Assembly: GCA_043797545.1 (NCBI GenBank)
Contig: JAZDPN010000073.1
Span: 1-57,523 of the forward strand
Length of the DNA stretch: 57,523 nucleotides
Direction of reading: 5' to 3'
Source of the DNA: Patescibacteria group bacterium
GTDB taxonomy: Bacteria > Patescibacteriota > Gracilibacteria > JAHISY01
Under the pieces are notes generated by a model. It was not told where the DNA came from, searched no databases, and saw only the letters and a list, made by a program, of their open reading frames with translations. The position numbers and the translations under genes are program-made. Below, in pieces: positions 7,297 through 50,120 of this stretch (position 1 is the stretch's first letter; every line of letters starts with the position of its first letter).

Positions 7297-7371
7297 GGCC
7301 CCGTAGTTCAATGGATAGAACAATTCCGTCCTAAGGAAGAAATGTAGGTTCGATTCCTGCCGGGGCCACCA
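7297..7371 (+). tRNA. tRNA-Arg (anticodon CCT), CCA encoded
   Basis: Hand-folded cloverleaf: acceptor GGCCCCG/CGGGGCC, D stem GTTC/GAAC, anticodon loop GTCCTAA, T arm GTAGG-TTCGATT-CCTGC. Confidence 0.85.
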
Positions 7372-7378
7372 AAATGTT

Positions 7379-7403
7379 CTCCGCTGCAAGCGGAGGTTAT
7401 TTT
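7379..7403 (+). terminator. Intrinsic terminator after tRNA-Arg
   Basis: Stem CTCCGC/GCGGAG with loop TGCAA, followed by GTTATTTT. Confidence 0.6.
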
Positions 7404-7532
7404 GGTGATTGCGGTGGGTGAGAAATACAAAAGCTCGTGCTTTGTTTTTCGAAAAACATTTCGGCGCGCGCCGCCACAAAGTGGCCCCTTCGGGGCGAAA
7501 TAATTTAAAATTCGCACGCGCTCGCAGCGAAT

Positions 7533-7555
7533 TTCGATTCCTGTCGGGGCCACCA
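7533..7555 (+). repeat. Direct copy of the 3' 23 nt of tRNA-Arg(CCT)
   Basis: TTCGATTCCTGTCGGGGCCACCA versus 7349-7371 TTCGATTCCTGCCGGGGCCACCA (22 of 23). The upstream sequence cannot form a T stem, so this is not a second tRNA. Confidence 0.9.
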
Positions 7556-7556
7556 A

Positions 7557-9032
7557 TTAAAAATTCAATTCGCGAATCGCCTGCCAGCGCCCAACCGACC
7601 AAATCGGACCTCGAGTAATTGTTTGAATTTGGGTAAAAAGTTTTTGCAACTGCGAATCAGTCAGTAAATTTTTATTTTGTGAAAGCGAATCGAGATAGTC
7701 GGTCGGCAGCTCGCGCGCGAAATGCCCGATACGCCAATTCGGCGTGGCGGGAAGGCGCGCGAGAAATGCATCAGTGAGCGCATATTCATCGATGATCACG
7801 CAATCACGTGGCGCAAGAAATCCGTAAATGCCGACATTTGCGAACGATCGAATGCCGTGACATTCGCCCTGGTTTTTCGGCGCCCAAGAGTGATTTTCGA
7901 TACCGCCGAGACGAATCATCGCGAACAAAGAATTTTCTGATTCGAAAAATTCGCGCTCATCCGCGATGCCGAAATCGTTGATTGTTTTTGCCGCGATCGG
8001 ACTGCCCGAAAAATTAATTCCCCAGCCGACAACCGCGAACAGCAAAATAATTTTGGCGAATTTTTTGAGCTGAACAAGGTCGGGGATTTGTCCGAGCAAA
8101 ATTACCGAGCCGAAAAAAAGTGGGGCGAGGAAACGACCGGACATGAAGTCGCCGCCGATTTTGAGAATATAAATTAGATACAAACACAGTCCCGCCGCGA
8201 GGCCGAGCAGTTTTTTCGAGCGAGAAACGAGCGACCAAACGAACGCAGCGAAAATCGTCGCGAGCGTGAGCGGATCGCGAATGAAAGAGTCGATTAAATA
8301 TTTGCCGCCCTGCGCGAGCAAAGCGAGCGGCGCGATTCCGGTCGCGAGTTTCGCGTAAAAAGTATTTGGGAAAGGAAAACCGAAATAAATCAGCGCGAAA
8401 AATTCCCACAGAATGAGTGGCGTGTAGCCGAGCAAAATTTGACCGAACGCTTTTGCTTTGTGCGGCGCGGCGAAAAATTCCCAGAGCAAGACCGGAACGA
8501 AAAGCAAAATCGTGTCGAGGCGATTGACCGTGGCGAGTGCGGCGACGAAGGAAAGCGCAAGCAGTTTTCGCGGCGAATCTTTTTGGAAAAAAATGAAAAC
8601 GAAAAGCGCGAACAAAAGATTGGTCAGCGGATTTTCGAGGCCGGAAGTCGCGAAATCGAGAAAAGCGTGCGAAAAAAACAGAAGCGCGAGTACGAAAATT
8701 TTGGCGAAGTCGCGCGAGATTAATTTGCGCAATACGAGCGCGAGCGCGGCGCAGCTCGTCAAAAACGAGACGCTCAAAGTCGTGAAGTACGCTTCGCGGG
8801 TGAGGAAATAAAACGGCGTGAGCAGAAATAACCAAAGCGGGTGAGTGAAAACTTGGACACGCTCGACGACATTCCAGCGCAAGCCGAAACCGTGCACGAA
8901 GTTGTCGATCACGCGCAAGGTAATAAATGCGTCGTCGGAGATCCACGCTCGCGCGACGAGACGGACAAGTAAAAACCCGAGCAAAATTCCGATCCCGATT
9001 CGCAGCCAAGTTCGTTTTTTGAGTGCGTTCAT
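7557..9032 (-). CDS. GT-C fold membrane glycosyltransferase (ArnT/PMT/arabinofuranosyltransferase-like)
   Basis: About 12 TM helices and an N-terminal loop motif WISDDAFITLR typical of GT-C enzymes. Confidence 0.55.
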   Translation of the reverse strand: MNALKKRTWLRIGIGILLGFLLVRLVARAWISDDAFITLRVIDNFVHGFGLRWNVVERVQVFTHPLWLFLLTPFYFLTREAYFTTLSVSFLTSCAALALVLRKLISRDFAKIFVLALLFFSHAFLDFATSGLENPLTNLLFALFVFIFFQKDSPRKLLALSFVAALATVNRLDTILLFVPVLLWEFFAAPHKAKAFGQILLGYTPLILWEFFALIYFGFPFPNTFYAKLATGIAPLALLAQGGKYLIDSFIRDPLTLATIFAAFVWSLVSRSKKLLGLAAGLCLYLIYILKIGGDFMSGRFLAPLFFGSVILLGQIPDLVQLKKFAKIILLFAVVGWGINFSGSPIAAKTINDFGIADEREFFESENSLFAMIRLGGIENHSWAPKNQGECHGIRSFANVGIYGFLAPRDCVIIDEYALTDAFLARLPATPNWRIGHFARELPTDYLDSLSQNKNLLTDSQLQKLFTQIQTITRGPIWSVGRWQAIRELNF

Positions 9033-9060
9033 CGCGAAAATTTTACGCTAAAATCGCGCC

Positions 9061-9543
9061 GTGAAAATTGCGCTTATTTCAGATTCGCACGGCGCGCTCG
9101 ATCGACTCGAGGAAGTTTTGCACAATTTCGACACGGCTGGGATTCGCGAAATCGTGCACGCGGGGGATTTCGCGCTTGGAGAAATCGTGGAACTTTTGTC
9201 TAATTTTCCACAGTTGAGTTTCCGGATCGCACGGGGAAACTGCGATGTTGATACTGAGAAAATTTTGGCAATTGCGAATTTACCGAATGTCGAACTCGAG
9301 GAAATTTTGGAGTTCGAGCTCGGCGGACGGCGCATCGCGGTCGCGCATCGGATTCGAGATTTAGCCAATTCAGACGCGCCAATCTTGATTTCTGGACACA
9401 CGCATATTCCGAGCGCGAAAGCGGTGAATGGAAAATTATTTTTGAATCCGGGCTCGCTGATGGATGACGGCGGCTATTTCATTTTGGATTTGGCGAATTT
9501 AATTGTTGAGCGCAAGCTTTTTTCTGACAAAGCTCTGGCTTAA
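9061..9543 (+). CDS. YfcE/MJ0936-family metallophosphoesterase
   Basis: Motifs ISDSHG, HAGDF, GNCD and SGHTH. GTG start. Confidence 0.75.
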   Translation: MKIALISDSHGALDRLEEVLHNFDTAGIREIVHAGDFALGEIVELLSNFPQLSFRIARGNCDVDTEKILAIANLPNVELEEILEFELGGRRIAVAHRIRDLANSDAPILISGHTHIPSAKAVNGKLFLNPGSLMDDGGYFILDLANLIVERKLFSDKALA

Positions 9544-9567
9544 AATTGGGCTGCGCTATTTGGAAAC

Positions 9568-10083
9568 ATGGACCGAATCGAAGTTCACAAAACGATCGCC
9601 ATCGTCACTATCAAGCTAATGATTTTGCAGCTGTTTTTTGCCTTGGTATATTTGGCGACATCTTTGATTAGTGATTCTGTTGATCTATACAACAACGGCA
9701 CTTTTATGAATCTAATCGCTTACGACAGTCTGACTTTTATAATTATTGCTTTGGTGCATTTGGCAATCACTTCGTATATTTTTTTGCAGTGGACGATGGA
9801 AAAATACATTCTCCTGCCCGACAAAATCCGCCATCAGTGGGGGATTCTTTTGCGGCAGACCAATTCTTGGGACATTAGCAATATCGAAACTGGCTATATC
9901 ACCGAAAGCGTAGTCGCGCGGCTTTTTGGTTATGGCACGATTACCTTTCACAGCCCGACTTTGGAAACGCGCGTTGTTTTGCGCGATGTTCCCTCGCCTT
10001 CTTTGGTCACGAATTACATTGAGAAAAATTTGGCTTTGCTTGGTAAATCGCCAATTAAGTATTTGAAAGCTGATTCTAAATAA
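9568..10083 (+). CDS. Membrane protein with a bacterial PH (YdbS/YdbT-like) domain
   Basis: Two N-terminal TM helices, then a WDISNIETGYITESVVARLFGYGTITFHS pattern. Confidence 0.45.
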   Translation: MDRIEVHKTIAIVTIKLMILQLFFALVYLATSLISDSVDLYNNGTFMNLIAYDSLTFIIIALVHLAITSYIFLQWTMEKYILLPDKIRHQWGILLRQTNSWDISNIETGYITESVVARLFGYGTITFHSPTLETRVVLRDVPSPSLVTNYIEKNLALLGKSPIKYLKADSK

Positions 10084-10142
10084 AAAATAATGTTGCATTT
10101 AGCTAACTTTGAGTTAGAATTAGCTCACTTTAATTTTTAAAA

Positions 10143-10523
10143 ATGCAGTACAAAAGATATCGCTCGCTCAAAATCGGACTTGTGATGCTACTCGCTGCGA
10201 CTGTCGGTGGCTTCGTCAGTCAGGGAAATTTTGTGATTCCGCTGGTCGCTTTTGCGATCGCCGCAGGAACAATTTTTCTAGTCAGTCGTCACGTTGATTC
10301 CGTTCAAAATGATGAGCGCATCGAAAAAATCGGCGGCAAAGCGGCGCGCTGGATACTCGCGATTTTTGCAATCGGAGGCGCGATCGCGAGCATCGTCCTC
10401 ACCGCGCTCGCCAAAGATAATCCGATTTATCAAATTCCGGCCTATATTTTTTCGGGTCTAGTTTGGTTTGTCTTGGTTGGACATCTGGTTTTGTTTTATT
10501 ATTTCAATCGCAAAGGCGAATGA
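10143..10523 (+). CDS. DUF2178-like membrane protein
   Basis: Four TM helices. Translationally coupled (ATGA) to a small XRE regulator, which is the usual DUF2178 context. Confidence 0.4.
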
Positions 10524-10714
10524 AAAACCGGATCAAAATTTTTCGCGCACAGTTTGATTTGACACAGAACGCACTCGCGGAAAAAGTCGGCGTGCGTCGC
10601 GAGACGATCGTTTTTCTCGAACAAGGAAAATACAATCCCTCGCTCGAGCTCGCTTTTCGCATCGCGAAAGTTTTTGGCGAACCGCTGGAAAATGTTTTTA
10701 TTTGGGAAAAATAA
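10520..10714 (+). CDS. XRE-family HTH transcriptional regulator (YozG-like)
   Basis: The sequence [48 protein letters not shown] is a canonical Cro/C1 HTH. Confidence 0.8.
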
Positions 10715-10717
10715 ATC

Positions 10718-10740
10718 TGGCGGAGGGAGAGAGATTCGAA
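10718..10740 (-). repeat. Direct copy of the 3' 23 nt of tRNA-Ser(GGA)
   Basis: TGGCGGAGGGAGAGAGATTCGAA versus 10881-10903 TGGCGGAGGGAGGGGGATTCGAA (21 of 23), in the same orientation as the tRNA. Confidence 0.9.
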
Positions 10741-10880
10741 GCTGGCTTCAAGTTCTGTTTTTAATTTGAGATTGTCGGCGGCGCGCGCCGAAATGGTTCG
10801 CGAAATACGGAACGCGAGCTACCAGGTGTCTCACCCACTCCCCGCGCCAAAAAATTCGCCTGTGCGGGGGCAATTTTTCG

Positions 10881-10970
10881 TGGCGGAGGGAGGGGGATTC
10901 GAACCCCCGAGGCAGTTGCCCGCCTACCCGCTTTCCAAGCGAGCGCACTCGGCCACTATGCGATCCCTCC
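10881..10970 (-). tRNA. tRNA-Ser (anticodon GGA), long variable arm, CCA encoded
   Basis: The reverse complement folds with acceptor GGAGGGA/TCCCTCC, anticodon loop TTGGAAA, an extra arm GGCGGGCAACTGCC, and T arm GGGGG-TTCGAAT-CCCCC. Confidence 0.85.
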
Positions 10971-11034
10971 GTTTTAGCGAAATTTCAAAACTGGGCGAGG
11001 CAACCCTCACCCCGATTTGCGAAGTGAGGTTGAA

Positions 11035-11247
11035 TTATTTTTCGGAGGAGGACTCCGCCGCCACATTCTTTTCTTTGGTCGGCTTTTGCAAAGTCCGCAG
11101 ACAGCTCGTGCAAATCACGACTTTCACACCGGAAAATTTCTTCGAAATTAAATTCGGGAGAAAGCGGCGGCGTGTGCGACGTTTGGAGTGGGAAACTTGA
11201 TTTCCGACTCCTGGTTTTTTGCCACAAAGATTGCAAACTTTACTCAT
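11035..11247 (-). CDS. rpmB: 50S ribosomal protein L28
   Basis: [33 protein letters not shown] is the conserved L28 N-terminus. Confidence 0.9.
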
Positions 11248-11293
11248 TGGGGAATGTTAAAATTAACCGAGCCGGGGGATTTTACGAGAAAAA

Positions 11294-11920
11294 ATGTTTT
11301 TACTCAACCTTTCGCCTTTCGAAATCCTGTCCTGGGTGGTCGGCTTCTTGGTCGCGCTCTCGGTCCATGAGGCTGCTCACGCTGCTGCTGCGAATTACCT
11401 CGGTGATCCAACCGCGAAATTTGCAGGCCGGATGAGCCTGAATCCCTTGAGACACCTTGATCCGGTTGGAACTTTGTTTTTAATTTTCGCAGGTTTCGGC
11501 TGGGGCCGACCAGTGCCTGTCAATCCGGCCAATTTCGCGAATCCACGCGCCGGAGAGATTTTAACTTCGCTAGCTGGGCCGCTCGCGAACTTCGTAATAG
11601 CGCTCGCCCTGGCGATTCCTCACAATCTGCTTGACCCCGGGTCGCTCGGCTTTCTTTTTGTGCAGAATGTAATGTTTGTGAATATAGTTTTGATGGTTTT
11701 CAATCTCCTGCCTATCCCGCCACTGGATGGAGGCGGTGTCGCGGTGAATTTCTTACCGATTGAGCTGGGCGAGAAATACCGCCGCAACGGTCCGATTTTG
11801 CTATTTGCTTTGATTGCGTTCGATTGGGTCTTTAAAACAAGTCTTTTGTGGGGCATCCTCGGAAAATTGGTCAATATCGTGTTTGTAGCGATTAACCTAA
11901 GCACAACATTTGGGGGCTAG
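11294..11920 (+). CDS. Site-2 protease family (peptidase M50) membrane metalloprotease
   Basis: HEAAH zinc motif and NLLPIPPLDGG motif within a polytopic membrane protein. Confidence 0.8.
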   Translation: MFLLNLSPFEILSWVVGFLVALSVHEAAHAAAANYLGDPTAKFAGRMSLNPLRHLDPVGTLFLIFAGFGWGRPVPVNPANFANPRAGEILTSLAGPLANFVIALALAIPHNLLDPGSLGFLFVQNVMFVNIVLMVFNLLPIPPLDGGGVAVNFLPIELGEKYRRNGPILLFALIAFDWVFKTSLLWGILGKLVNIVFVAINLSTTFGG

Positions 11921-12232: not shown

Positions 12233-12235
12233 GTC

Positions 12236-13144: not shown

Positions 13145-13189
13145 AAAAATCCGCCAATTTTAGCAGAAATATAAGCTAAAAACAATTCG

Positions 13190-13232
13190 TTTTATTTCAA
13201 ATACTCATCCCACGCCTTGATCGGCAACTCGA
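13190..13232. repeat. Direct repeat, left copy: duplicate of the last 13 codons, stop codon and 3 downstream nt of carB
   Basis: GTTTTATTTCAAATACTCATCCCACGCCTTGATCGGCAACTCGA matches 14560-14602 with one mismatch. Confidence 0.9.
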
Positions 13233-13280
13233 CTAACAATCCATCACTTTACTCGAACGTATTTCAATTTTTTATAAAAT

Positions 13281-13475
13281 ATGTTAAAATGCGCAGAAAC
13301 AAAAACTATGAAATCCAAACAAAAATCACTCCTGCCGCTTGCGGCTGAGATGCTGCAAACGCTCGACGCGGCACAAGAAAAAGAATTGGCACGCAAAAAA
13401 ATACTCGCGAAACGAACCGAGGAACTTTCTTCGCGAATCGAAGATTTCGAACAAACACAAAAACTTTTGGGTTAA
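13281..13475 (+). CDS. Small coiled-coil protein (64 aa), cassette gene 1
   Basis: ORF in an AT-rich segment. Its stop overlaps the next start (TAATG). Confidence 0.4.
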   Translation: MLKCAETKTMKSKQKSLLPLAAEMLQTLDAAQEKELARKKILAKRTEELSSRIEDFEQTQKLLG

Positions 13476-14560
13476 TGTCAATCGAAAACAAAGACCGACC
13501 ACCTGTTGCCAAAACAGAAACTGAGCTTGAGCGTTTAATGCCCGAGTACGCCGAAATGCGTGATGCGATTATTAATGTAGAGGTGGCCGCAAACAAAATG
13601 GAGCTGCAAAAAAGACAAGCCGACGATATTAACAATGAAATCGTTGATCGTCTGTCAACAATTAAAGTGAAAATAGATCAGCTCGCCAAAAAATATCCCG
13701 ACAACGATAGTCTGCGGATACTTATGGATATGTACGAAGATATTAGTCAGGATTTTATTTACAGTAGGAAAACTCGGGTTGACACAAGTTTGCAAAAAAG
13801 ATTGGCGGAAGTGCAAAAATCTGTCGTCGATGCTGGAATTACTACCGTTCCCTCGGAAAATATTGATAACCCGAAAACAAAAGAATTGGTCGCAAAGATG
13901 CAGCAACTCGGAATCCCGATTGAACGAGTCACAACTCGCCCAAACGCAGACCGAACTGTGATTCTGATAGTCTGGGCCCATCCCAATCCCGGGATGAATG
14001 AGGAAGTAAGAAAGGAGTTCGGCATCTTTGAAAGTCAAAACAAAGTTAATGATTATATTGCCAAATTATCTCAAGCTGGAATTTCAAATCATGTACTTAC
14101 CGAGGGAATTCCGGCCAATATAAGTCCTGAGCTTAAGGCAAAAGTCTTAGCTGAAATGGCCCAAAATGGGTTTCCGTTTATAAATTTAACAAATATTTCT
14201 ATTGAGGGTGTCGAAAACAAAGCTTTTTTGCTAAAAACAGCAACCGATTTAAGTTCAGCTAATTACCAAATCAGGGCAACTATCAACAATATAGTCATGG
14301 CTCACAACATCGAAAATTCTATGCGGTCTGGAGAGGTTTCGATCGCCGTCATGGGCGCGGCTCACGAATTTGAAATCGATCAGAGCGAACATCAATTGTC
14401 TTACTCGCAGGCCACCTCTTTCGAAGCTAATGCTAATGTGATTGTCATAAATACGGCAAGGGAGTTCTACGAAGCTACTCGCGACCCTAAAAAAATGGAG
14501 CTCATGAAGCAAGCAGCAGCCAATTTTCAGGCAGGGATTAAAGAACAGTTTTCGAAATAG
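13475..14560 (+). CDS. Hypothetical protein (361 aa), cassette gene 2
   Basis: Long AT-rich ORF with an N-terminal coiled coil. The C-terminal half carries VWAHPNP and VMGAAHEFE motifs. I can assign no family with confidence. Confidence 0.55.
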   Translation: MSIENKDRPPVAKTETELERLMPEYAEMRDAIINVEVAANKMELQKRQADDINNEIVDRLSTIKVKIDQLAKKYPDNDSLRILMDMYEDISQDFIYSRKTRVDTSLQKRLAEVQKSVVDAGITTVPSENIDNPKTKELVAKMQQLGIPIERVTTRPNADRTVILIVWAHPNPGMNEEVRKEFGIFESQNKVNDYIAKLSQAGISNHVLTEGIPANISPELKAKVLAEMAQNGFPFINLTNISIEGVENKAFLLKTATDLSSANYQIRATINNIVMAHNIENSMRSGEVSIAVMGAAHEFEIDQSEHQLSYSQATSFEANANVIVINTAREFYEATRDPKKMELMKQAAANFQAGIKEQFSK

Positions 14561-14602
14561 TTTTATTTCAAATACTCATCCCACGCCTTGATCGGCAGCT
14601 CG
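14560..14602. repeat. Direct repeat, right copy (functional 3' end of carB)
   Basis: See 13190-13232. Confidence 0.9.
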
Positions 14603-17600
14603 AGATCGCGATATTGCTCGAGCGAATCGACAACCAATTTCGCAACCTGCGGATTGACGAACAACGGAATGCCGAAGTCCGTCGCGCGGCGGCGAATCAG
14701 ATAGCCGTTCGTCATTTCCTCGGCTTGATAATTTTTCGGAATATTCACGACCATGCCAATTTGTTTTTGGGCAAAAAGGTCGAGGACGTTTGGCTTCTGC
14801 TTCTCGAGCGGAAAATGCACCAAAGTATTCGCCACACCGTTGTCGGTCAAAAAGCGAGAAGTGCCCGGCGTCGCGAAAAGTTTGAAACCCATCGCGATCA
14901 GTTTTTGCGCGGAGGGGAGGAAGGCCAATTTCGAATCAATCGATCCAGTCGAGATGAGAATATTTTTCTTCGGCAAACGGAAGCCGACCGCGATCTGCGC
15001 TTTGAGAAAAGCTTCGTGCAAATTCTCGCCGAAACACGCGACTTCGCCGGTCGACGCCATCTCGACGCCGAGCGTCGGATCCGCACCTTTGAGCCGCGAG
15101 AAAGAAAACTGCGCGGCTTTCACGCCGACGTGATTGAGGTCGAGAGTTTGGTAGTTTTGTTTCCGCCACGCTTTCGGCGCGACTTTGCCGAGCATCGCCT
15201 CGATCGCGATCGCGATGAAATTGTGCCCGGCAGTTTTGGAAACGAACGGGAACGAGCGGCTAGCTCGTAAATTTAACTCTATGACCGCGACACGATTTTC
15301 TTTCGCGAGAAATTGAATGTTGAATGGGCCAGTGATTTTGAGTTCCGCGGCCAATTTTTTCGCGATAATTTTGATGCGTTTAATCGTCTCGAGATAAGTT
15401 TTTTGCGGCGGCAAAACCAAAGTCGCGTCGCCCGAGTGGACGCCAGCATTTTCGACATGCTCGGAAACCGCGAAAATTACGAGCTTCCCGTCGGCGGCGA
15501 CTCCGTCGAAATCGATTTCGCGCGCGCCTTCTTCAAATTTCGAAATCACGACGGGCGCGTCGGTTGAAATTTTCGTGGCCTTGGCCAGATAATTTTGGAG
15601 CTGCTCGGCGGTGAACGCGACGGACATCGCCGCGCCGGAGAGAACATAACTCGGACGAACGAGCACCGGGTAGCCGACTTTTTTCGCGAATGACATCGCG
15701 TCAGAATTTTGGGTGAACTCGGACCACTGCGGTTGGTCGATCTCGAGCGAATCGCAAAGCTGCGAGAATTTTTCGCGCGACTCGGCGCGGTCGATCGAAA
15801 CCGGGGAAGTTCCGAAAATCGGAACTTTTTCCGCCGCCAATTTTCCGACGAGATTATTCGGAATTTGTCCGCCCGTCGAGACGACGACGCCTTTCGGTTT
15901 CGTGAAATCGAGAATGTCGAGGACGCGCTCGACGGAAAGCTCGTCGAAATAAAGTTGGTCGCAGGAGTCGTAATCCGTCGAAACAGTCTCGGGATTGTAA
16001 TTGATCATGATTGTCTCGAAACCGTTTTTCGCTAAAGTTTGGACGGCGGAGACACAGCACCAATCGAATTCGACGGACGAACCAATGCAGTACGCGCCGC
16101 TTCCCAAAACAACCGCGCGGGGCCGTAGCCCGCCGAAGCTCGAAGAGCGAAGGCCGGGTTTTTTGGAGAATTTAATTTCGTCGCTCGTATCGCCGTGGTA
16201 GGTCAAATAAAGATAATTTGTTTTCGCGGGAAACTCCGCAGCAAAAGTGTCGATTTTTTTGACGACCGGGAGAATACCGAATTTTTTGCGGCGTTTGCGA
16301 ATTTCCAATTCTCCGACGCCCGCACGCCACGCGATTTGCGAATCGGAAAAGCCCAATTTTTTTGCACGGGAAAACTCGTCTTTCGACAATTTTCCTTTTT
16401 GGGCTTTGAGAATGTCGCGCTCGAAGTCGGCGATGTTTTTGCATTTTTCGAGAAACCACTCGTCGATGCCGGTCAGTTTTTTAATTTTTGCGACCGACCA
16501 ACCGTCGCGCAGCGCGCGCGCGATCGCGAAAATTCTTTCCGGCGTCGGCTTGGAAATAACTTTTTCGAGCGAGTCGAATTTGAAATTGGCGTGACTGAAA
16601 CCGTACGCGCCGACCTGCAACATGCGCAGCGCTTTTTGCAAAACTTCCTCGAACGAGCGACCGATCGCCATCACTTCGCCGACCGATTTCATTTCGCTGC
16701 CAATCTCGGCGGAAACTTTACGGAATTTTTGGAGATCCCAGCGCGGGATTTTGAGAACGAGATAATCGAGCGCCGGTTCGAAACACGCGGTCGTGTTGCC
16801 GGTCACCGCATTCGGGACTTCGTCGAGTCTTTTGCCGAGCGCGAGTTTCGCAGCGACATGCGCGAGCGGATAGCCGGTCGCTTTCGACGCGAGCGCGGAG
16901 GAGCGCGACAAGCGCGCATTTACTTCGATCACACGATAATCAATTTTGTGCGGATCGGTCGGATTCGGATGCAGCGCGTATTGAATATTGCATTCGCCGA
17001 CGATGCCGAGGTGTCGAATCACGCGAATCCCGATTTCGCGGAGCGCGTGATATTCGTAATTGTTCAAAGTTTGCGACGGCGCGACGACGATCGACTCGCC
17101 GGTGTGAATGCCGAGCGGATCGAAATTTTCCATGTTACAAACCGTCAAACAGGTGTCGGCGGAATCGCGAACGACTTCGTATTCGATTTCTTTCCAGCCG
17201 CGCAAATCTTCTTCGATCAAAACTTGCGGCGACGCCGAGAACGCGACTTCGAGTAATTTTTTCAGCTCGGCAGGATTTTGAGCGAAGCCCGAGCCTTTGC
17301 CACCGAGCGCGTATGCTGCGCGAACAATCACCGGGAAACCAATTTTTTTGGCGGCGGCGATTCCTTCAGCTTCGTTGCGCACGGCTTGCGCACGCGCGGT
17401 CGTCACTCCAATTTCGTTTAATTTTTTGACGAAAAGTTCGCGGTCTTCGGTCGCCTCGATCGCAGAAATTTGCGTGCCGAGAACTCGAACTTTGTGTTTT
17501 TTGAAAACACCGCGCTTTTCCAGCTCAACTCCGCAATTGAGCGCGGTCTGACCACCGAAAGCTAGCAAAATTCCGTCCGGCTTTTCTTTTTCGATGATCC

Positions 17601-17838
17601 GCTCGACAAAGCGGGGGGTGACCGGGAGGAAATAAACGCGGTCCGCCACCCCGGCTGAAGTTTGATTCGTAGCAATGTTCGGATTGACCAAAATCGTTTC
17701 GATTTTTTCTTCTTTCAGGGCTTTGATGGCTTGACTACCAGAATAATCGAATTCCCCTGCCTCGCCGATTTTTAGAGCGCCAGAACCGAGTACGAGAACC
17801 TTTCGAACTTTCTCCGAATAGGCCTTTTTGAGCTTCAT
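14563..17838 (-). CDS. carB: Carbamoyl-phosphate synthase large subunit
   Basis: Duplicated ATP-grasp architecture: KVLVLGSGALKIGEAGEFDYSG and a second VVLGSGAYCIGSSVEFDWCCV. The C-terminal domain is MGS-like. Length 1091 aa. Confidence 0.9.
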   Translation of the reverse strand: MKLKKAYSEKVRKVLVLGSGALKIGEAGEFDYSGSQAIKALKEEKIETILVNPNIATNQTSAGVADRVYFLPVTPRFVERIIEKEKPDGILLAFGGQTALNCGVELEKRGVFKKHKVRVLGTQISAIEATEDRELFVKKLNEIGVTTARAQAVRNEAEGIAAAKKIGFPVIVRAAYALGGKGSGFAQNPAELKKLLEVAFSASPQVLIEEDLRGWKEIEYEVVRDSADTCLTVCNMENFDPLGIHTGESIVVAPSQTLNNYEYHALREIGIRVIRHLGIVGECNIQYALHPNPTDPHKIDYRVIEVNARLSRSSALASKATGYPLAHVAAKLALGKRLDEVPNAVTGNTTACFEPALDYLVLKIPRWDLQKFRKVSAEIGSEMKSVGEVMAIGRSFEEVLQKALRMLQVGAYGFSHANFKFDSLEKVISKPTPERIFAIARALRDGWSVAKIKKLTGIDEWFLEKCKNIADFERDILKAQKGKLSKDEFSRAKKLGFSDSQIAWRAGVGELEIRKRRKKFGILPVVKKIDTFAAEFPAKTNYLYLTYHGDTSDEIKFSKKPGLRSSSFGGLRPRAVVLGSGAYCIGSSVEFDWCCVSAVQTLAKNGFETIMINYNPETVSTDYDSCDQLYFDELSVERVLDILDFTKPKGVVVSTGGQIPNNLVGKLAAEKVPIFGTSPVSIDRAESREKFSQLCDSLEIDQPQWSEFTQNSDAMSFAKKVGYPVLVRPSYVLSGAAMSVAFTAEQLQNYLAKATKISTDAPVVISKFEEGAREIDFDGVAADGKLVIFAVSEHVENAGVHSGDATLVLPPQKTYLETIKRIKIIAKKLAAELKITGPFNIQFLAKENRVAVIELNLRASRSFPFVSKTAGHNFIAIAIEAMLGKVAPKAWRKQNYQTLDLNHVGVKAAQFSFSRLKGADPTLGVEMASTGEVACFGENLHEAFLKAQIAVGFRLPKKNILISTGSIDSKLAFLPSAQKLIAMGFKLFATPGTSRFLTDNGVANTLVHFPLEKQKPNVLDLFAQKQIGMVVNIPKNYQAEEMTNGYLIRRRATDFGIPLFVNPQVAKLVVDSLEQYRDLELPIKAWDEYLK
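16119..16158. repeat. GC-rich hairpin element related to the murD/PLP hairpins, inside the carB inter-half linker
   Basis: GGGGCCGTAGCCCGCCGAAGCTCGAAGAGCGAAGGCCGGG shares CCGTAGCC..GCCGAAGC..GCGAAGGC with 1868-1896 and 1478-1503. It encodes GLRSSSFGGLRP just before the second GSG motif. Confidence 0.5.
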
Positions 17839-17993
17839 CTGGTGGATTTTAGCGAATTTTTGGGGAAATTCCATAACTTGACAAAAAAACACGATAATTT
17901 CAATAAATGTCTATTTTCATTGAAAAACAAGCCCGATTCTGCTAAAATACCCAGATTCCTTTTCTAAAGGGAGCAAGTTTAAAAAAAATAAAA

Positions 17994-18500: not shown

Positions 18501-18501
18501 A

Positions 18502-37716: not shown

Positions 37717-37719
37717 TTA

Positions 37720-42390: not shown

Positions 42391-42399
42391 TCGCAAAAA

Positions 42400-42417
42400 T
42401 GGTGCGCCCGGCAGGAT
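42400..42417 (-). repeat. Direct copy of the 3' 18 nt of tRNA-Arg(TCG)
   Basis: TGGTGCGCCCGGCAGGAT is identical to 42593-42610, in the same orientation. Confidence 0.9.
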
Positions 42418-42555
42418 AAATTCGCCATGGGCGAATTGGGCTGCTGCGTCGCTCGCGCACGACAAACAGCTACGCTGTTGTCGCGACTCGCTATCCTCGC
42501 AGAACGAACCTCGCTTGCTTCGCTGCGCGGCAAATTTTCACCACGCCCGACAACC

Positions 42556-42582
42556 ACGCAAAACCTGCCCGCTTCGCGGGTC
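42556..42582 (-). terminator. Intrinsic terminator after tRNA-Arg(TCG)
   Basis: On the minus strand: CCCGC-GAA-GCGGG followed by CAGGTTTT. Confidence 0.5.
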
Positions 42583-42592
42583 AGAACTTGCG

Positions 42593-42669
42593 TGGTGCGC
42601 CCGGCAGGATTCGAACCTGCAACCCCCGGTTCCGAAGACCAGTGCTCTATCCAGTTGAGCCACGGGCGC
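42593..42669 (-). tRNA. tRNA-Arg (anticodon TCG), CCA encoded
   Basis: The reverse complement folds with acceptor GCGCCCG/CGGGCGC, D arm GCTCAACTGGATAGAGC, anticodon loop CTTCGGA, and T arm GCAGG-TTCGAAT-CCTGC. Confidence 0.85.
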
Positions 42670-42779
42670 GCGCCGCGATTTTAGCATTTTTACTGGGAAA
42701 TAATCCTTGATTTTGGCAAGTCTTCGTGATTGAGGAAAATGCTTAAAAATGCTAAAATGTCCGGATTTAAAAGCCAAAA

Positions 42780-45092
42780 ATGCAAACAAAAATCATCGCG
42801 AGCCTGCTCGGAATGATCAGCTTAATTTGCTTGGCAAATCCGGCTTTGGCAAGCCAAGTGCCTGCTGGATACGTCCTCGTCCCAGCCGATGTTTTCTTCG
42901 GACAAGGCTCAAGTGTTATCGCTCCGAACACCACTGTGGCCGAGGTTTCGACTAGCAAATCGAGTGTCCGGGTCAACGACGAAATTGGTTATGTCGGTGA
43001 AAAATACTCAGTCGCAACCGTCACTCTGCGCGACGAGGCGAATCGACCAGTCGCCGGGGAAAGCGTAACCCTGATTTCTTCGCGGGCAACCGACTCAATC
43101 AAGGCTTTGCAAAACGAAACAAATTCCAATGGTGAAGCCTCTTTCCAGGTTTTAGCCAAAGGAGAAGGTGTTAGCTCTCTGACAGCTCTCGCGGGCAATC
43201 AAACAATTCTCGAACGACCACGCATTGTCTTTTTGCAGAAGGCCGGAGGCATCGGTGGAAACCTCTTACGAGCTGACGTCGTGACGGCCAGCGCACCGAC
43301 AAAAAAAACGGTTGCAGCAACGCTAACTACTAATCAGGTTTTTGCGGATTTCCCCAATACAATCAAGGCCGACACACCAACCGACATTACGGTCACAATC
43401 AAAGATGCTGACGGGAAAATCGTAGAGGATTTTCGCGGAACGATTAATTTCCAGAGTTCCGACTCGCTTGCGATTCTGCCCAAAGAATATACGTTCGGCG
43501 AACTCGACCGTGGTTCACATAATTTTGCTAATGCTGTCACCATGCTGACGGCAGGCGACCAAACAATCACAATTGCTGGCGACACAAATCTGGGTTCGCA
43601 GGAGGTTCCTGTGAAAGTCTTGGACGGAGTGGGCGGAGTCGCGACACCCGTAATCACCAGCCCGACTGACGGCGCACTTTTGAATAAGACAGTCTTGCTC
43701 GAAGGACTCGCTCCGGTAAACTCAAATCTTGTTGTTTTCACGGATGGCCAATTTTTGAAAAATGGGCAATCTGACGGCGACGGTAAGTTTTTGATCGATG
43801 CTGACTTAGTAGACGGACAGCACGAAATTACGGTCGGTGTTTTGAAAAACGACAGCTCTGTCGGAGCTGTCTCGGAAGCTATTAGGGTTAATCTTGATAA
43901 AACCAAGCCTGTTTTGGAAGATGTTTCTCTCGACCCGGGCAACCGCGTCGTGAGCGGCCAGCTCGTGAAAATAACCGTTAAAAGTGAGTCTGCTCTCGCC
44001 GGAGCGCAGTTCCGGATTGAGAATGAATCCGATGATTTGATTGAGTCATCGGTCGCCGGAACATACACTGGCGAATTCACCGCTCCGGCCGACGGTGCTT
44101 ATTTCGTAAGCGTCGAGTTGACTGATAAGGCCGGGAATATTGGCTCTTTCCCGGAAGCAACCAGCATCCTTGTCGAAGTACCGATTACAATTGAAAAAGT
44201 CGAAACTACACCCCGCGATGGTCGAGTGGATTTACGCTGGGATGCACCGGCGAATACGGCTAGCATCGCGCATTACGAAATTTTTTACGGGACGGATAAA
44301 GAACAGCTCGACAAGAAATTCACGACGACAGATAATCGCACGGCCTGGTTTATTGATAACCTAAACAACAACACAAAATACTTTTTTCGCGTCGTTTCGG
44401 TCGACGCTGACAGCAAGCAAAATGGTGGCAGCGAGATTGTCCAGGCGACTCCGACCGCTATGGTCGCAGCAACCGGTTGTGATTCAAAAATTATTTTAAG
44501 CTGGCAGACGCCGACTAATTCCAAGATCGCTAATTATCGACTCGACTACGGAGTCGCAAGCGGTGATTACGCCGAGAGTCGATTACTTTCGGGTGGCAAA
44601 AAATTAAAACAGTGGGAGGTGCGTGATCTCGTGAATGGTTCACCTTATTTTTTCGCTTTGCGCGGAGTCGATGACTTCGGCGAAGTCGTCGCCGATATGG
44701 GTGAGGTCAGCGCGACTCCGACCGCGGGCGAGGTCTGCGGCTCGATCGAACCAATTCAGCTTTTTCAGAAAAGAGATGCTGCTGGCAACATTTTCCTGGT
44801 TTGGAACCCTGTTGCCGGTGCGACCAGTTATCGGATTTACGCCGGGACGCAGCCAAATGTCTTTGATCTACCAACAGTCGAGGTCGCCGCAAATGCTTTT
44901 CAGCCTAAAGGGCTCGCCAAAAACACTGATTACTATTTTGCGGTAAGCGCGGTTTTTTCCGGAGTCCACAACGCCGCGACCCTGTCAAACGTCACCAAGG
45001 TCGAGGTCGGGCCAGCCGAAATAATTTTCATCTCCCTGATCGCGGCCTTCGTGGGCAGCCTCCTGATTAGGCGAAAATTTTCCCGGAGCTAA
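42780..45092 (+). CDS. Large surface protein with Ig-like (Big) and fibronectin type III repeats and a C-terminal TM anchor
   Basis: Signal peptide, invasin-like SVTLISSRATD...NGEASFQV, several FN3-like W..P modules, and a terminal hydrophobic helix plus RRKFSRS. Confidence 0.65.
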   Translation: MQTKIIASLLGMISLICLANPALASQVPAGYVLVPADVFFGQGSSVIAPNTTVAEVSTSKSSVRVNDEIGYVGEKYSVATVTLRDEANRPVAGESVTLISSRATDSIKALQNETNSNGEASFQVLAKGEGVSSLTALAGNQTILERPRIVFLQKAGGIGGNLLRADVVTASAPTKKTVAATLTTNQVFADFPNTIKADTPTDITVTIKDADGKIVEDFRGTINFQSSDSLAILPKEYTFGELDRGSHNFANAVTMLTAGDQTITIAGDTNLGSQEVPVKVLDGVGGVATPVITSPTDGALLNKTVLLEGLAPVNSNLVVFTDGQFLKNGQSDGDGKFLIDADLVDGQHEITVGVLKNDSSVGAVSEAIRVNLDKTKPVLEDVSLDPGNRVVSGQLVKITVKSESALAGAQFRIENESDDLIESSVAGTYTGEFTAPADGAYFVSVELTDKAGNIGSFPEATSILVEVPITIEKVETTPRDGRVDLRWDAPANTASIAHYEIFYGTDKEQLDKKFTTTDNRTAWFIDNLNNNTKYFFRVVSVDADSKQNGGSEIVQATPTAMVAATGCDSKIILSWQTPTNSKIANYRLDYGVASGDYAESRLLSGGKKLKQWEVRDLVNGSPYFFALRGVDDFGEVVADMGEVSATPTAGEVCGSIEPIQLFQKRDAAGNIFLVWNPVAGATSYRIYAGTQPNVFDLPTVEVAANAFQPKGLAKNTDYYFAVSAVFSGVHNAATLSNVTKVEVGPAEIIFISLIAAFVGSLLIRRKFSRS

Positions 45093-45532
45093 AAAGGTAA
45101 ATCGTCGATCTTCACCTCTTCTTCGTCTGTTTGTGCCGGAGCGCTTTGCGGCGCGGATTTGGCGGCCGGAGCGGAACCAGCGGAGAATGAGCCGCCGCCA
45201 CGCGAATCGAGCATGATCATGTTCTCAGCTATGATCTCGGTACGGTAATTCTTCTTGCCGTCAGGGTCTTCCCAAGAACGAGTCTTGAGTCGGCCTTCGA
45301 AATAAGTCTTGGCGCCTTTTTTTAAATACTGTTGGCAAATCTCGGCTAGCTTGCCCCAAACAACCACATTGTGAAATTCGGCCTCTTCTTGGAGTTCGCC
45401 AGCCGCGTTTTTCCATTTCCGGTTTGTGGCAATCCCAATCGTCGCAACGGTCTGGCCATTCGGCGTCTGACGCACCTCCGGGTCGCGTGTGAGGTTGCCG
45501 ATTACTTGGACTTTGTTGAGAGAGCTGGCCAT
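45089..45532 (-). CDS. ssb: Single-stranded DNA-binding protein (canonical, acidic tip DDLPF)
   Basis: OB fold LNKVQVIGNLTRDPEVR, a Gly/Ala-rich linker, and the C-terminal IDDLPF. Confidence 0.9.
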   Translation of the reverse strand: MASSLNKVQVIGNLTRDPEVRQTPNGQTVATIGIATNRKWKNAAGELQEEAEFHNVVVWGKLAEICQQYLKKGAKTYFEGRLKTRSWEDPDGKKNYRTEIIAENMIMLDSRGGGSFSAGSAPAAKSAPQSAPAQTDEEEVKIDDLPF

Positions 45533-45661
45533 GGCAAAAGGAGTTATTAAAGCGCTGCGATTTTAACAAATCCTAAAACATACCAAGCATTTTTTATTGA
45601 ACGCGCAAGCCAATTTTTGGACCCTTACTTTGGGTGAATCTGCTAAAATTTGGCTCTCAAA

Positions 45662-46924: not shown

Positions 46925-47122
46925 TTTTCCAAAAAATTATTTAAATAATTTTTTAAATTTTCTTTCTCTTAATTTCAATTCTTAAATTCTTTTAAAAAAC
47001 ACCACTTTCCAAAATCTTTTCCAAAATTTATCCACAAAATTTCTTACTTATTCTTAAAAACTAATTATTCAACCATTTTTCGCTTAAATGAATCAACTAG
47101 TTCTTACTTATTAATTAAAAGA
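46925..47122 (+). promoter_or_regulatory. 198-bp AT-rich leader upstream of cimA with a 12-nt direct repeat and one consensus DnaA box
   Basis: TTCTTACTTATT occurs at 47041-47052 and 47101-47112. TTATCCACA is at 47028-47036. TTTCCAAAA words recur. Confidence 0.4.
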
Positions 47123-48682: not shown

Positions 48683-48707
48683 ATTGCCGCGCTGAGGCAT
48701 AAAGATT

Positions 48708-49085
48708 CTATTTATCACCGGGCTCTTCCACATTCACTTCGTTGTTGCCGGATTCACCTTTGCCCCACTTGAGGATGTTGAGCGTGTCGAGAACGACCTC
48801 AGTGATGGTTCTTTTTTGTCCTTCTTTCTCGAATTGGCTATTGTGCAGGCGGCCTTCCACGAAGACGCCCATACCCTTTTTGAGCCACTTTTCAGCAGTT
48901 TCCGCGAGATGTCCCCAGGCGGTGATCCGGTGGAAGTCGGTATATTGCCTTTTTTCGCCATCGACAGTCCGGTCGTAGTTCGTGGCGATGGAAAAACTGG
49001 CGACCTTTTTGCCAGCCTTAGTCTCGCGCACTTCGGGGTCGCCAGTGAGGTGACCGATGAGGATTACTCGATTGATGCTGCGCAT
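48708..49085 (-). CDS. Second SSB paralog lacking the acidic C-terminal tip
   Basis: OB fold INRVILIGHLTGDPEVRETKAGKKVASFSIATN. It ends in VEEPGDK with no D-D-(I/L)-P-F. Confidence 0.75.
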   Translation of the reverse strand: MRSINRVILIGHLTGDPEVRETKAGKKVASFSIATNYDRTVDGEKRQYTDFHRITAWGHLAETAEKWLKKGMGVFVEGRLHNSQFEKEGQKRTITEVVLDTLNILKWGKGESGNNEVNVEEPGDK

Positions 49086-49338
49086 GATAAAAAAATTAAA
49101 AGATTAGACCAGTATTTTTATAAACTAAACGAAGCCGGACAAGGCCGCATCATTAAACCTTAATTAAGCTAGACGCATTAATTCTGGGACAAAAAACGAC
49201 GAGCAGTATTTGCTCGCAGGCTAAATCCAGTCCAGCTTTGAGCGCGACTAGGCATGCAAATTTCGCTAAGCCAAATATTTAGCTGTTTTTCGTTCGACGA
49301 AAAATTAATTTTAAACCAAGAATATTTAAATAAACGCT

Positions 49339-49755
49339 TCACGCCAATTTAAAAGGGTTTCCAAATGCTTTAGGGTTTCTCTCAAGAGCTTCAAATATTT
49401 TTCTTGTCGCAGGTGTTGCTTTACCCCTTTCTATAACCTCCTCGTAAACAAGCTTCATTCTTTTGCAGCGGTCTTGCCAAAATTTTTGCGAGCAGAATTC
49501 ATCTCTTTTTTTAGGCATTCCTTTTAAAAAAACAAAGAGCATGTTTTGTATTACCCGAAAAGCGCTTCGAGTTCTTTCTTTGTGCCAATCATTTTGGGTG
49601 GCTTCATTTTTAAAAATCTCGCCAGAACGAAGTTTTTCTAAAAAAGCCAAAAACACAAGAGCCTGTTTTTGCGCCGTTATCATTTTTCTTTCGCGATCTT
49701 CGCTGTTGTTTTCAGGAGTGCCGAATAAAAGCAACGCGGCATCTCGAGATAACAT
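49339..49755 (-). CDS. Hypothetical protein (138 aa) in an AT-rich segment
   Basis: An ORF only. Helical, with no recognised motif. Confidence 0.35.
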   Translation of the reverse strand: MLSRDAALLLFGTPENNSEDRERKMITAQKQALVFLAFLEKLRSGEIFKNEATQNDWHKERTRSAFRVIQNMLFVFLKGMPKKRDEFCSQKFWQDRCKRMKLVYEEVIERGKATPATRKIFEALERNPKAFGNPFKLA

Positions 49756-49758
49756 TCT

Positions 49759-49980
49759 TTAAATAAGATTAAGCGATATTTCGCCGTTGAGCGCCCCATT
49801 CCTAATCTCTTGCAACGCCCCTCGCGCAAGCGCTACCTCTCGTCGTAAATTTTTAAACGCCCTCACGTGCGCTGGCGTTTGATTTATAAAAGCCCGCGGA
49901 GCATCTTTTGCCCACCGTTTTCCTCTCTGAGTGTTGCTTACATGAGGCTCACCGCAATTTTTTTGAGATGCATATCGCAT
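49759..49980 (-). CDS. Hypothetical small basic protein (73 aa)
   Basis: An ORF only, 3 nt upstream of the previous one. Confidence 0.3.
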   Translation of the reverse strand: MRYASQKNCGEPHVSNTQRGKRWAKDAPRAFINQTPAHVRAFKNLRREVALARGALQEIRNGALNGEISLNLI

Positions 49981-50033
49981 AGAAGGTCACATTCTAGTAA
50001 AAAATTCGACATAGTCAAACGGTGTAATCGGAA

Positions 50034-50120
50034 TTAATTTTCCGCGCCGCAACATTTTTTGTATTTCTTCCCCGAGCCGCCCACCTTCGTTCGTTGTGAC
50101 GAACTACGGTGGGCTTCGCT
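50034..50120 (-). pseudogene. Relic of a SEC-C metal-binding motif (…KVGGSGKKYKKCCGAEN*) directly downstream of secA
   Basis: The minus-strand translation of 50034-50081 gives GGSGKKYKKCCGAEN-stop. There is no start codon and the first Cys pair is missing. The secA terminal codons read [14 protein letters not shown]. Confidence 0.6.

Follow-up and report, generated by a model that had tools for sequence, protein, structure and literature searches.

The part of a tRNA gene that runs from the T-loop to the CCA end is the usual core of tyrosine-integrase att sites, and Williams reportedly distinguished sublocation classes of tRNA-gene integration in 2002. ICESt1 and ICESt3 integrate in the 3' end of fda, bringing a replacement end with them. 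Casposons are directed to tRNA 3' ends, where they duplicate ~14–15 bp of target; they are marked by terminal inverted repeats and by an integrase of the Cas1 family. MITEs also have terminal inverted repeats, with a target duplication that is short and fixed in length, while IS110 bridge-RNA elements and group II introns encode a recombinase or a reverse transcriptase of their own and have a distinctive RNA architecture, with a 2-nt core duplication in IS110. Patescibacteria (CPR) genomes are thought to be streamlined and integrase-poor, and to our knowledge their mobile DNA is poorly charted.

Two described systems are closest to the locus studied here. In mycobacteriophage Ms6, a 26-base attP core is identical to the tRNA 3' end, strand exchange probably takes place in the 7-base T-loop, and the phage can be retargeted to other tRNAs through editing of the core (PMC1762012). 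CIMEs have lost the integration genes and kept attL and attR; those of Firmicutes are decayed ICEs or IMEs, kilobases long, whose descent from a known ICE sharing their att sites is demonstrable (PMC5704250).

We analyzed a stretch of 57,523 nt (the window) of contig JAZDPN010000073.1 from a Peribacteria-like lineage of the Patescibacteria (CPR), using related loci (labeled with L-numbers: L006, L007, L032, L033, L035, L039, L041 and L042) for comparison. An earlier note on this DNA had claimed that three tRNA genes, carB and secA each have a copy of their own 3' end downstream, a pattern that it considered typical of elements entering gene ends and bringing a new end along.

Five Gene 3' Ends Are Duplicated Downstream

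For each of 52 features, the last 60 nt plus 8 nt served as a query against the 3-kb region that follows it. A same-sense copy of the feature's own 3' end was found for 5 of the 52, namely carB, secA and all three tRNA genes of the window. These five scored 41, 21, 18, 18 and 17, with a next best score of 12 and a median of 9; upstream and reverse-complement controls reached at most 14–15, which leaves the flagged range of 17–41 above a background maximum of 12–15 among the features of the window. Related loci gave background scores throughout, save at two occupied tRNA sites.

The repeats range from 18 to 45 nt and agree well with the earlier description. The tRNA copies do measure 18–23 nt. 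At carB, where 43 nt had been claimed, the two copies (14555-14603 and 13184-13232, 1371 bp apart) are 94% identical over 49 nt and share a 44-nt core with one mismatch. The diverged SEC-C copy downstream of secA proved to be a 24-nt repeat of 92% identity (50149-50172 and 50047-50070, 102 bp apart) accompanied by a remnant of the canonical tail.

Occupied and empty sites were then compared, and syntenic relatives supplied an empty site at each of the five positions: at tRNA-Arg(cct) in L007, L035 and L041, at tRNA-Ser(gga) in L007 and L035, and at both tRNA-Arg(tcg) and secA in L033 and L042, while the insert downstream of carB is missing in L006, L007, L039 and L041. Since the sites are empty in these relatives, the five repeats mark insertions that entered genes at the 3' end and brought a new end with them, as the earlier note had proposed. 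The positions are hot spots, with cargo genes that differ from relative to relative. An assembly artefact is ruled out as the source of the repeats, because E3 and E2-like elements (see below) were found again in independent assemblies. The coordinates of all features are collected in Table 1.

Table 1. Genes, inserts and repeats at the five duplicated gene ends of the window.
Feature	Position	Strand	Evidence or remark
tRNA-Arg(cct)	7297..7371	+	ARAGORN, Rfam; last 23 nt (T-loop to CCA) form the left repeat
E1, 161-bp non-coding insert	7372..7532	+	Sequence, alignment, motif searches, terminator scan
E1 hairpin A	7378-7396	+	Terminator-like, followed by a T-run
E1 box GTGGGTGAGA	7414-7423	+	
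E1 block CATTTCGGCGCGCGCCGCC	7457-7475	+	
E1 hairpin B	7509-7515 with 7527-7533	+	
Right repeat, downstream copy of the tRNA-Arg(cct) 3' end	7533..7555	+	22/23 identical
tRNA-Ser(gga)	10881..10970	-	ARAGORN, Rfam; last 23 nt form the left repeat
E2, 140-bp non-coding insert, homologous to E1	10741..10880	-	Sequence, alignment, motif searches
E2 box, same as E1 box GTGGGTGAGA	10838-10829	-	
E2 19-mer, same as E1 block CATTTCGGCGCGCGCCGCC	10795-10777	-	
Downstream copy of the tRNA-Ser 3' end	10718..10740	-	21/23 identical, one exact run of 12
carB	14563-17892	-	Pfam-confirmed
carB gene-proximal repeat	14560..14603	-	Last 13 codons, stop codon, 3-4 further bases
Insert between the carB repeats, 1.33 kb	13233..14559	+	Low GC, 0.43-0.45
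carB-insert ORF	13281/13309-13475	Opposite to carB	
carB-insert ORF, 361 aa	13475-14560	Opposite to carB	Uncharacterised family
Displaced carB 3' end (distal repeat)	13188..13232	-	
tRNA-Arg(tcg)	42593..42669	-	ARAGORN, Rfam
E3, 175-bp non-coding insert	42418..42592	-	Diverged member of the E family; sequence, alignment, nhmmer
Downstream copy of the tRNA-Arg(tcg) 3' end	42400..42417	-	18/18 identical
secA	50136-52898	-	Pfam-confirmed
Present secA tail, variant	50136..50195	-	Holds the proximal 24-nt repeat 50149-50172
Spacer between new and old secA tails, 21 nt	50115-50135	-	
Hairpin between new and old secA tails, 36 nt	50079-50114	-	GCCCACC...GGTGGGC
Canonical secA tail remnant	50034..50078	-	GSGKKYKKCCGAEN*

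One Family of Non-Coding Elements Occupies the Three tRNA Sites

Alignment and nhmmer place E1, E2 and E3 in one homologous, collinear non-coding family of 163–193 bp including the repeat. Being homologous and collinear, they are not independent decay products, and for the tRNA elements the earlier suggestion that larger islands had decayed repeatedly finds no support. The other suggestion, small non-autonomous passengers, suits these three inserts. All E elements share a terminator-like hairpin and common boxes, and hairpin A was scored as an intrinsic terminator in a terminator scan. The 10-nt and 19-nt blocks are identical in E1 and E2 and lie at an identical spacing of 35 nt, the spacer between them being diverged. 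No ORF was detected inside the elements, no terminal inverted repeats at their termini, and no older outer repeats that would record accretion.

The three tRNA genes are intact, and the repeats are much better conserved than the element bodies. In E1, E2 and an E2-like element in L041 the repeat begins with the first base of the T-loop and ends with CCA, and in E3 it comprises the last 18 nt. The E2 repeat is closer to the T-stem allele of the empty sites (CCCTC) than to the resident tRNA (CCCCC), which fits replacement of the resident end.

The distribution of the family is patchy. E2-like elements occur in two other lineages: in L041, where the repeat matches the tRNA-Ser acceptor variant of L041 itself, and in L039, where both the copy and its repeat are decayed. 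Where different lineages carry a copy at the same tRNA, these copies are 53–60% alike, no more than those at different tRNAs. At tRNA-Arg(tcg), L032 has an E3 copy that is 98% identical to that of the window amid flanks only 60–85% identical, which suggests, from the sequences compared, mobility or recent transfer of E3. The block of 98–99% identity begins in the region upstream of the tRNA and stops exactly at the repeat.

The carB and secA Inserts Are Unrelated to the tRNA Elements

The carB islet encodes two ORFs, and its 361-aa product has no recombinase fold. At secA, an alternative C-terminal tail has displaced the canonical one, so that a foreign tail serving as replacement is seen directly. 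The downstream copy encodes the canonical SEC-C tail and is the ortholog of the tail still live in L033 (90% over 41 nt); the variant tail is sporadic among relatives. By nhmmer, the carB insert, the secA insert and the E elements have no detectable similarity to one another, and the idea of the earlier note that one system served all five sites finds no backing in this comparison.

A Proposed Trans-Acting Recombinase and att-Type Insertion at Gene Ends

The scanned ORFs of the window contain no integrase, resolvase, other recombinase or transposase domain and no Cas1, in line with the earlier note, and the rest correspond to syntenic housekeeping genes of relatives. A larger or autonomous parent with E-like ends was found neither in the window nor in 13 related loci, and scans of genome contigs and viral contigs that required exact motifs returned chance matches only. 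The 23-mers of the tRNA repeats stand alone in phage contigs, with a Phage_integrase gene at most 1 kb from the 23-mer in 3/3 phage contigs tested.

The reading we favor, whose chances we consider evenly balanced, is that a recombinase in trans carried out att-type integration at the gene ends, with integrase-less, CIME-like mini-elements at the tRNAs; we infer the enzyme and the order of events. The five repeats would be recombinational insertion scars at the extreme 3' end of conserved genes, the incoming DNA having brought its own version of the gene end and shifted the resident end downstream. The E elements may thus be miniature att-flanked elements lacking an integrase, comparable to CIMEs, which a recombinase encoded elsewhere would have put in place. 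They could then have spread or persisted via homologous recombination between arms provided by the tRNA and the repeat, and each brings a terminator-like hairpin to the rebuilt tRNA. The carB site has received an unrelated 1.37-kb two-ORF islet, and at secA the SEC-C tail has been swapped for an alternative allele. As the carB and secA inserts have no E feature, a mechanism common to all five sites is assumed, not shown.

Like elements inserted at the T-loop by tyrosine integrases, the E elements are flanked by a repeat of the tRNA 3' end from the T-loop, regenerate the tRNA, and occupy a hot-spot site with presence/absence polymorphism. Such elements, however, contain an integrase gene, whereas the short E elements are non-coding and none was detected within the 57.5 kb. 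With CIMEs they share intact or nearly intact att-like repeats at a gene 3' end, the lack of integration and transfer genes, and a presumable need for a recombinase in trans; they differ in having no known parent, in combining three target genes with one backbone, and in their CPR host. The carB and secA inserts resemble ICESt1/ICESt3 in regenerating the gene end and displacing the old one downstream, but the carB islet holds just two ORFs, and the secA insert measures ~100 bp and gives the protein a tail that is itself a naturally occurring alternative. Several points weigh against the att reading: no recombinase was detected among the scanned ORFs, the 361-aa product included, no parent came up in the scans, older outer repeats are lacking, and E copies at one tRNA are no more alike between lineages than copies at different tRNAs. 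Moreover, three different cores on one backbone need a permissive integrase or repeated retargeting, and the integrated unit of ~190 bp is far below the size of any described CIME.

An integrase-free origin appears unlikely to us. DNA taken up from relatives, anchored by a conserved gene, would have been joined by homology-facilitated illegitimate recombination, reportedly described in Acinetobacter by de Vries and Wackernagel in 2002, or by a Campbell-type crossover. The second junction would form at short homology in the recipient gene end, or a circular fragment would enter by a single crossover, the gene end being duplicated either way; the repeat, once made, could provide the second stretch of homology with which the insert might spread through ordinary recombination. 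Such a route would account for repeats that vary in length yet always end at the gene end, where homology between strains stops, for the absence of a recombinase from the scanned ORFs, and for unrelated, heterogeneous cargo at the five sites. The variant secA tail resembles an allele imported from a relative, and the limits of the block shared with L032 are those expected with the tRNA and the repeat as arms. The route leaves unexplained, however, the homologous E elements at three different tRNAs and the shared start of the tRNA repeats at the first T-loop base, and arms of 18–23 nt are barely long enough for RecA-dependent exchange.

RNA Tests and the Possible Function of the E Elements

In Rfam 15, only tRNAs and 5S rRNA pass, and permissive scans of E1 and E3 gave nothing credible. 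In the RNAalifold prediction, the G-rich box region forms a helix with the 3' copy that has 87% pairing and seven pairs changed on both sides; 0/500 shuffles match it, and there are 26 G.U pairs against 4 A.C mismatches. The energy is weak (-9 kcal/mol). A duplex test was cognate-specific for the tRNA-Ser elements only; the best site of E1 lies elsewhere, and E3 gave no signal. The complementarity of the E elements to the tRNA end is partial and heterogeneous.

These results bear on a reading that we regard as quite improbable, in which E is a selected, tRNA-linked functional RNA or DNA module, such as a terminator, an insulator or a small RNA whose 3' end resembles that of a tRNA. The copied tRNA end downstream would then be a working part, for example a pairing partner or a processing signal. 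The predicted helix and the terminator score of hairpin A speak for it, as do the identical blocks around a diverged spacer, the conservation of the repeats far above the element bodies, and the fact that E3 and the tRNA promoter form the most conserved 400 bp of an 11-kb comparison. Yet E is missing at all three tRNAs in close relatives and is therefore dispensable, the L039 copy is decaying together with its repeat, and neither the Rfam result, the restricted duplex signal nor the weak folding energy favors a module.

The same complementarity would gain another meaning if the E elements were an undescribed class of non-coding miniature mobile elements at CPR tRNA 3' ends whose target is set by nucleic-acid matching, a prospect that strikes us as rather remote. 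Each copy would combine the sense tRNA 3' end with a G.U-tolerant antisense segment to the same end; a single backbone could therefore move among tRNAs via a host or trans-acting enzyme, or via DNA uptake and recombination, with no recombinase of its own.

Transposition with a long target-site duplication is very improbable in our estimate. An 18–23-bp staggered cut, in the T-loop and after CCA, would make both copies host-derived, so that E would need no matching core, and its segment complementary to the tRNA end might guide targeting. One backbone at three tRNAs, each flanked by its own tRNA end, the match of the L041 repeat to L041's own acceptor-stem variant, the possible antisense complementarity to the cognate end and the casposon precedent all agree with this. 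MITEs, like E, are small and present in several copies, and casposons likewise target tRNA 3' ends with duplication; however, both have terminal inverted repeats, MITEs a duplication of fixed length and casposons a Cas1, whereas the E repeat varies in length and is set by the gene end, and neither terminal inverted repeats nor a Cas1 or transposase gene was detected. The allele of the E2 repeat fits end replacement, and the proximal copy at secA is a different allele, so the secA repeat cannot be a target duplication. An IS110-type element or group II intron was rejected, given the lack of an ORF and of an Rfam intron or ribozyme match and repeats of 18–23 nt.

Meaning for the Patescibacteria

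The E elements bear a classical integration signature, but form an unusual family of miniature non-coding inserts without a nearby recombinase. In 57 kb, each of the three tRNA genes has an element of ~170 bp at its 3' end. The elements recur patchily in related lineages and are near-identical between otherwise well-diverged genomes, which suggests that DNA insertion in this clade follows an active route that standard integrase-based island finders would overlook. If an ordinary integrase is encoded elsewhere, they would be neat but conventional att scars; if the enzyme is host-encoded or targeting is sequence-guided, they would be of mechanistic interest and of possible use as a tool. The five sites are entry hot spots for strain-specific genes, examples being a toxin-like orphan protein and the alternative zinc-finger tail of SecA.

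Duplicated 3′ ends of tRNA and protein-coding genes

All three tRNA genes detected in the window by ARAGORN are followed by a same-sense copy of their own 3′ end, and carB and secA carry such copies as well. The 3′ ends of 52 features were each compared with their own downstream 3 kb, using upstream and reverse-complement sequence as controls. The five features flagged in the earlier note scored 41, 21, 18, 18 and 17, while the rest reached at most 12 and the controls at most 15. With scores above both the feature background and the controls, the 3′-end duplication signature is genuine and non-random.

Duplicated 3′ ends and associated features of the window (nt)
Feature	Position	Strand	Source	Details
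tRNA-Arg(cct)	7297-7371	+	ARAGORN	3′-end copy 7533-7555, 22/23 identical
tRNA-Ser(gga)	10881-10970	-	ARAGORN	3′-end copy 10740-10718, 21/23 identical
tRNA-Arg(tcg)	42593-42669	-	ARAGORN	3′-end copy 42417-42400, 18/18 identical
carB	14563-17892	-	Pfam	13184-13232 duplicates 14555-14603 (49 nt, 94% identity, offset 1371 bp)
secA	50136-52898	-	Pfam	50047-50070 duplicates 50149-50172 (24 nt, 92% identity, offset 102 bp)
361-aa protein ORF	13475-14560	+		orphan-like
G-rich segment, E1	7408-7426			after first hairpin; predicted partner, repeat
G-rich segment, E2	10844-10826			after first hairpin; predicted partner, repeat
G-rich segment, E3	42552-42534			after first hairpin; predicted partner, repeat

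Empty sites in related genomes

For both carB and secA, the best-matching relatives are MAGs with the labels Patescibacteria, Candidatus Peribacteraceae or Peregrinibacteria. Querying window proteins for exact protein matches gave none. We compared syntenic contigs of nine relatives: L006 and L032, which are one NCBI contig (carB protein identity 96%), and L007, L033, L034, L035, L039, L040, L041 and L042. A metagenome search with the M50 peptidase yielded four loci, one of which, L035, was usable.

The tRNA-Arg(cct) site is empty in L007, L035 and L041, where other DNA directly follows the tRNA, the tRNA-Ser site in L007 and L035, and the tRNA-Arg(tcg) site in L033 and L042. The carB 3′-end copy is absent from L006, L007, L039 and L041, in which the next genes differ or are missing. 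Directly after secA, L042 has leuA, L033 an AAA_15 gene, and L032 a small SSB gene. Since empty sites exist at all five positions, the duplications mark insertions, which supports the proposal of the earlier note that the inserted DNA supplies a replacement gene end. The differing neighbours indicate that the cargo at each position varies between genomes.

A family of small elements behind the tRNA genes

The non-coding inserts after tRNA-Arg(cct), tRNA-Ser(gga) and tRNA-Arg(tcg), designated E1, E2 and E3 (163–193 bp including the repeat), are collinear in alignment. From the tRNA side, they comprise a GC-rich hairpin followed by a T-run, with a terminator-like score in E1 and E2; a box, GTGGGTGAGA; a GC-rich palindromic sequence; and a second hairpin abutting the repeat. 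The outer stem of the first hairpin pairs with the discriminator-CCA end of the tRNA. The 10-nt box recurs unchanged in E1 and E2, as does a 19-mer, CATTTCGGCGCGCGCCGCC, the two being spaced exactly 35 nt apart in both elements; the 19-mer has no other occurrence in the window, and 0.1 matches would be expected by chance. Relatives add an E3 in L032 with 98% identity to that of the window, an E2-like element in L041 whose repeat agrees with L041's own acceptor-stem variant, and an E2-like element in L039 in which both the boxes and the repeat have decayed. The E3 pair excepted, identity within the family is 53–60%, compared with 44% for shuffled sequence.

An nhmmer profile of the six elements recovered no additional copies, the carB and secA inserts being dissimilar, and no Rfam family matched the E elements. 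Searching genome contigs for the pattern GGGTGAGA-N25-45-TTTCGGCGCGCGCC returned five matches, which we attribute to chance because all come from unrelated taxa and have the wrong spacing. Viral-contig pattern searches for E motifs gave GC-rich chance matches or none, and when decayed remnants of earlier outer repeats were sought past the cargo genes, scores did not exceed those of shuffled sequence. Several known arrangements were considered and dropped: tandem tRNA duplication followed by decay, as E1 alone has a 5′ acceptor-like strand spaced as in a tRNA; T-box-like UGGN pairing, as no gene lies downstream for it to regulate; and IS200/IS605, IS110, group II intron and integron attC, whose defining features are absent.

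The surroundings of tRNA-Ser differ in further respects. The contig of the closest relative (L006, JAZDNQ010000026.1) ends exactly at the tRNA-Ser 3′ end (15913–15915), the kind of assembly break that a repeated E-like element at this point would be predicted to cause. Just 5′ of this tRNA, a small GIY-YIG ORF of 83–89 aa (L006 15570–15821, L007 14921–15190) is missing from the window (about 10970–11030), a further indel at tRNA-Ser. The gap between the E2 repeat and a conserved metallophosphoesterase gene is occupied in the window by genes for a DUF2178 membrane protein and an XRE-type HTH protein (10143–10715) and a bPH_2 gene (9568–10083), and in relatives by other genes or none.

Inserts behind carB and secA

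The carB repeats enclose 1.33 kb of low-GC DNA with two ORFs, of 55–64 codons and of 361 aa, both antisense to carB. The 361-aa protein had no Pfam, PHROGs or PDB sequence match, and a word-indexed protein search returned only itself. Its 67 remote relatives form an uncharacterised family with conserved Asp, His and Glu, Asn also being listed as invariant. A confident AlphaFold model (pLDDT 90.7) gave weak Foldseek matches to RRSP and PMT toxin effector domains (E = 0.01, TM = 0.3). This protein is cargo and no recombinase; it may act as a toxin or as an effector hydrolase. A different gene, of 307 aa, occupies the post-carB position in L006. Past it (14500–14545), nine nucleotides, TCGAGTTGC, agree exactly with the beginning of the carB repeat block, within a loosely similar stretch; alone it is not significant, and as a hint only it may be a decayed old repeat.

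C-terminal zinc-finger tails of SecA in this clade (window 50136–50195; proteins P0121–P0159) are of two types, the canonical CPCGSGKKYKKCCG and a longer variant, CPCGA.K.DG..KKYK.CCG, which the Pfam SEC-C model misses. The variant is scattered over lineages 61–82% identical, a distribution that suggests either horizontal tail replacement or an old polymorphism. Window secA ends in the variant tail, followed by 21 nt, a 36-nt hairpin and a canonical-tail remnant; this downstream copy falls in the reading frame GSGKKYKKCCGAEN-stop, and the remnant aligns with the live tail of L033. Because the variant is live and the canonical remnant lies downstream, the variant must have come on the inserted DNA, and the secA repeat cannot be a target duplication. 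Neither L032 nor the distant L040 has a canonical remnant after its variant secA, so the tail replacement is documented in the window only. The ~830 bp at 49290–50114, which include the hairpin and the remnant, are missing from L032; the small ORFs of this stretch, three in number (73, 138 and 54 aa), match no family. Two SSB genes are present in the window, at 48708–49085 and 45089–45532, both on the minus strand. The 125-aa SSB belongs to the variable region 3′ of secA and recurs in some relatives; L033 and L034 have an AAA_15 ATPase gene instead.

Mechanism of insertion at the tRNA genes

The repeats of E1, E2 and the L041 element span from the first T-loop base to CCA, the layout of T-loop-class tRNA att sites. 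In phage Ms6, a 26-base attP core is identical to the tRNA-Ala 3′ end, strand exchange probably occurs within the 7-base T-loop, and core editing retargeted the phage to other tRNAs (PMC1762012). The 23-mers of the window occur many times outside tRNA genes in IMG/VR contigs, and all three contigs examined have a Phage_integrase gene no more than 1 kb from the stand-alone 23-mer. Att-type recombination is accordingly our leading mechanism for the tRNA inserts. Functionally, the E elements fit the description of CIMEs, which retain attL and attR and have lost the integrase (PMC5704250), but they are smaller by an order of magnitude and lack a known parent. The T-stem of the E2 repeat reads CTCTC, one step from the CCCTC of empty-site genomes and two from the CCCCC of the resident tRNA-Ser; being closer to the empty-site allele, it favours replacement of the resident end over pure target duplication.

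An 11-kb alignment of the window with L032 revealed a block at 42790–42400, starting ~120 nt 5′ of tRNA-Arg(tcg) and closing with the final repeat base, that is 98–99% identical, against 60–90% for neighbouring genes and 50–77% for other intergenic regions. This ~400 bp (window 42400–42800, L032 15788–16188) comprises the tRNA upstream region, the tRNA, E3 and the repeat; identity stops exactly at the repeat, and the sequences are unalignable beyond. The block indicates either recent transfer of a tRNA-plus-E3 unit, with the repeat as its boundary or arm, or strong selection. As an alternative to att-type recombination, we regard DNA uptake with homology-driven recombination as a rather unlikely origin of the inserts.

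For the six elements, RNAalifold predicts a helix between the 3′ repeat and the G-rich sequence surrounding the box. Of its cells 87% are paired, and both partners have changed in 7 of the 17 pairs; none of 500 shuffles equalled it, and slid controls gave 47–60%. With 26 G.U pairs against 4 A.C mismatches, the helix would be workable on the tRNA-sense strand only. A direct duplex test was clearly cognate-specific for the three tRNA-Ser elements, favoured a different segment in E1 (GTGGCCCC at 7487–7494) and gave no signal for E3. The predicted pairing is convincing for the tRNA-Ser elements alone. Given this mixed outcome, sequence-guided targeting or an RNA function of the E elements is graded as possible. 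Decay of the L039 copy, together with the number of empty sites, speaks against the elements being indispensable, and that they are functional RNA modules appears quite improbable. Long-stagger or guided transposition is very improbable.

As the earlier note stated, the window has no integrase: no integrase, resolvase, transposase or Cas1 domain was found among the ORFs scanned, and the remaining ORFs are housekeeping genes syntenic in relatives. We infer a recombinase acting on the E elements. That a single system moves many passengers stands up only for the tRNA elements; it is not supported for the carB and secA inserts, which lack similarity to E. All five positions are insertion hot spots at gene 3′ ends.
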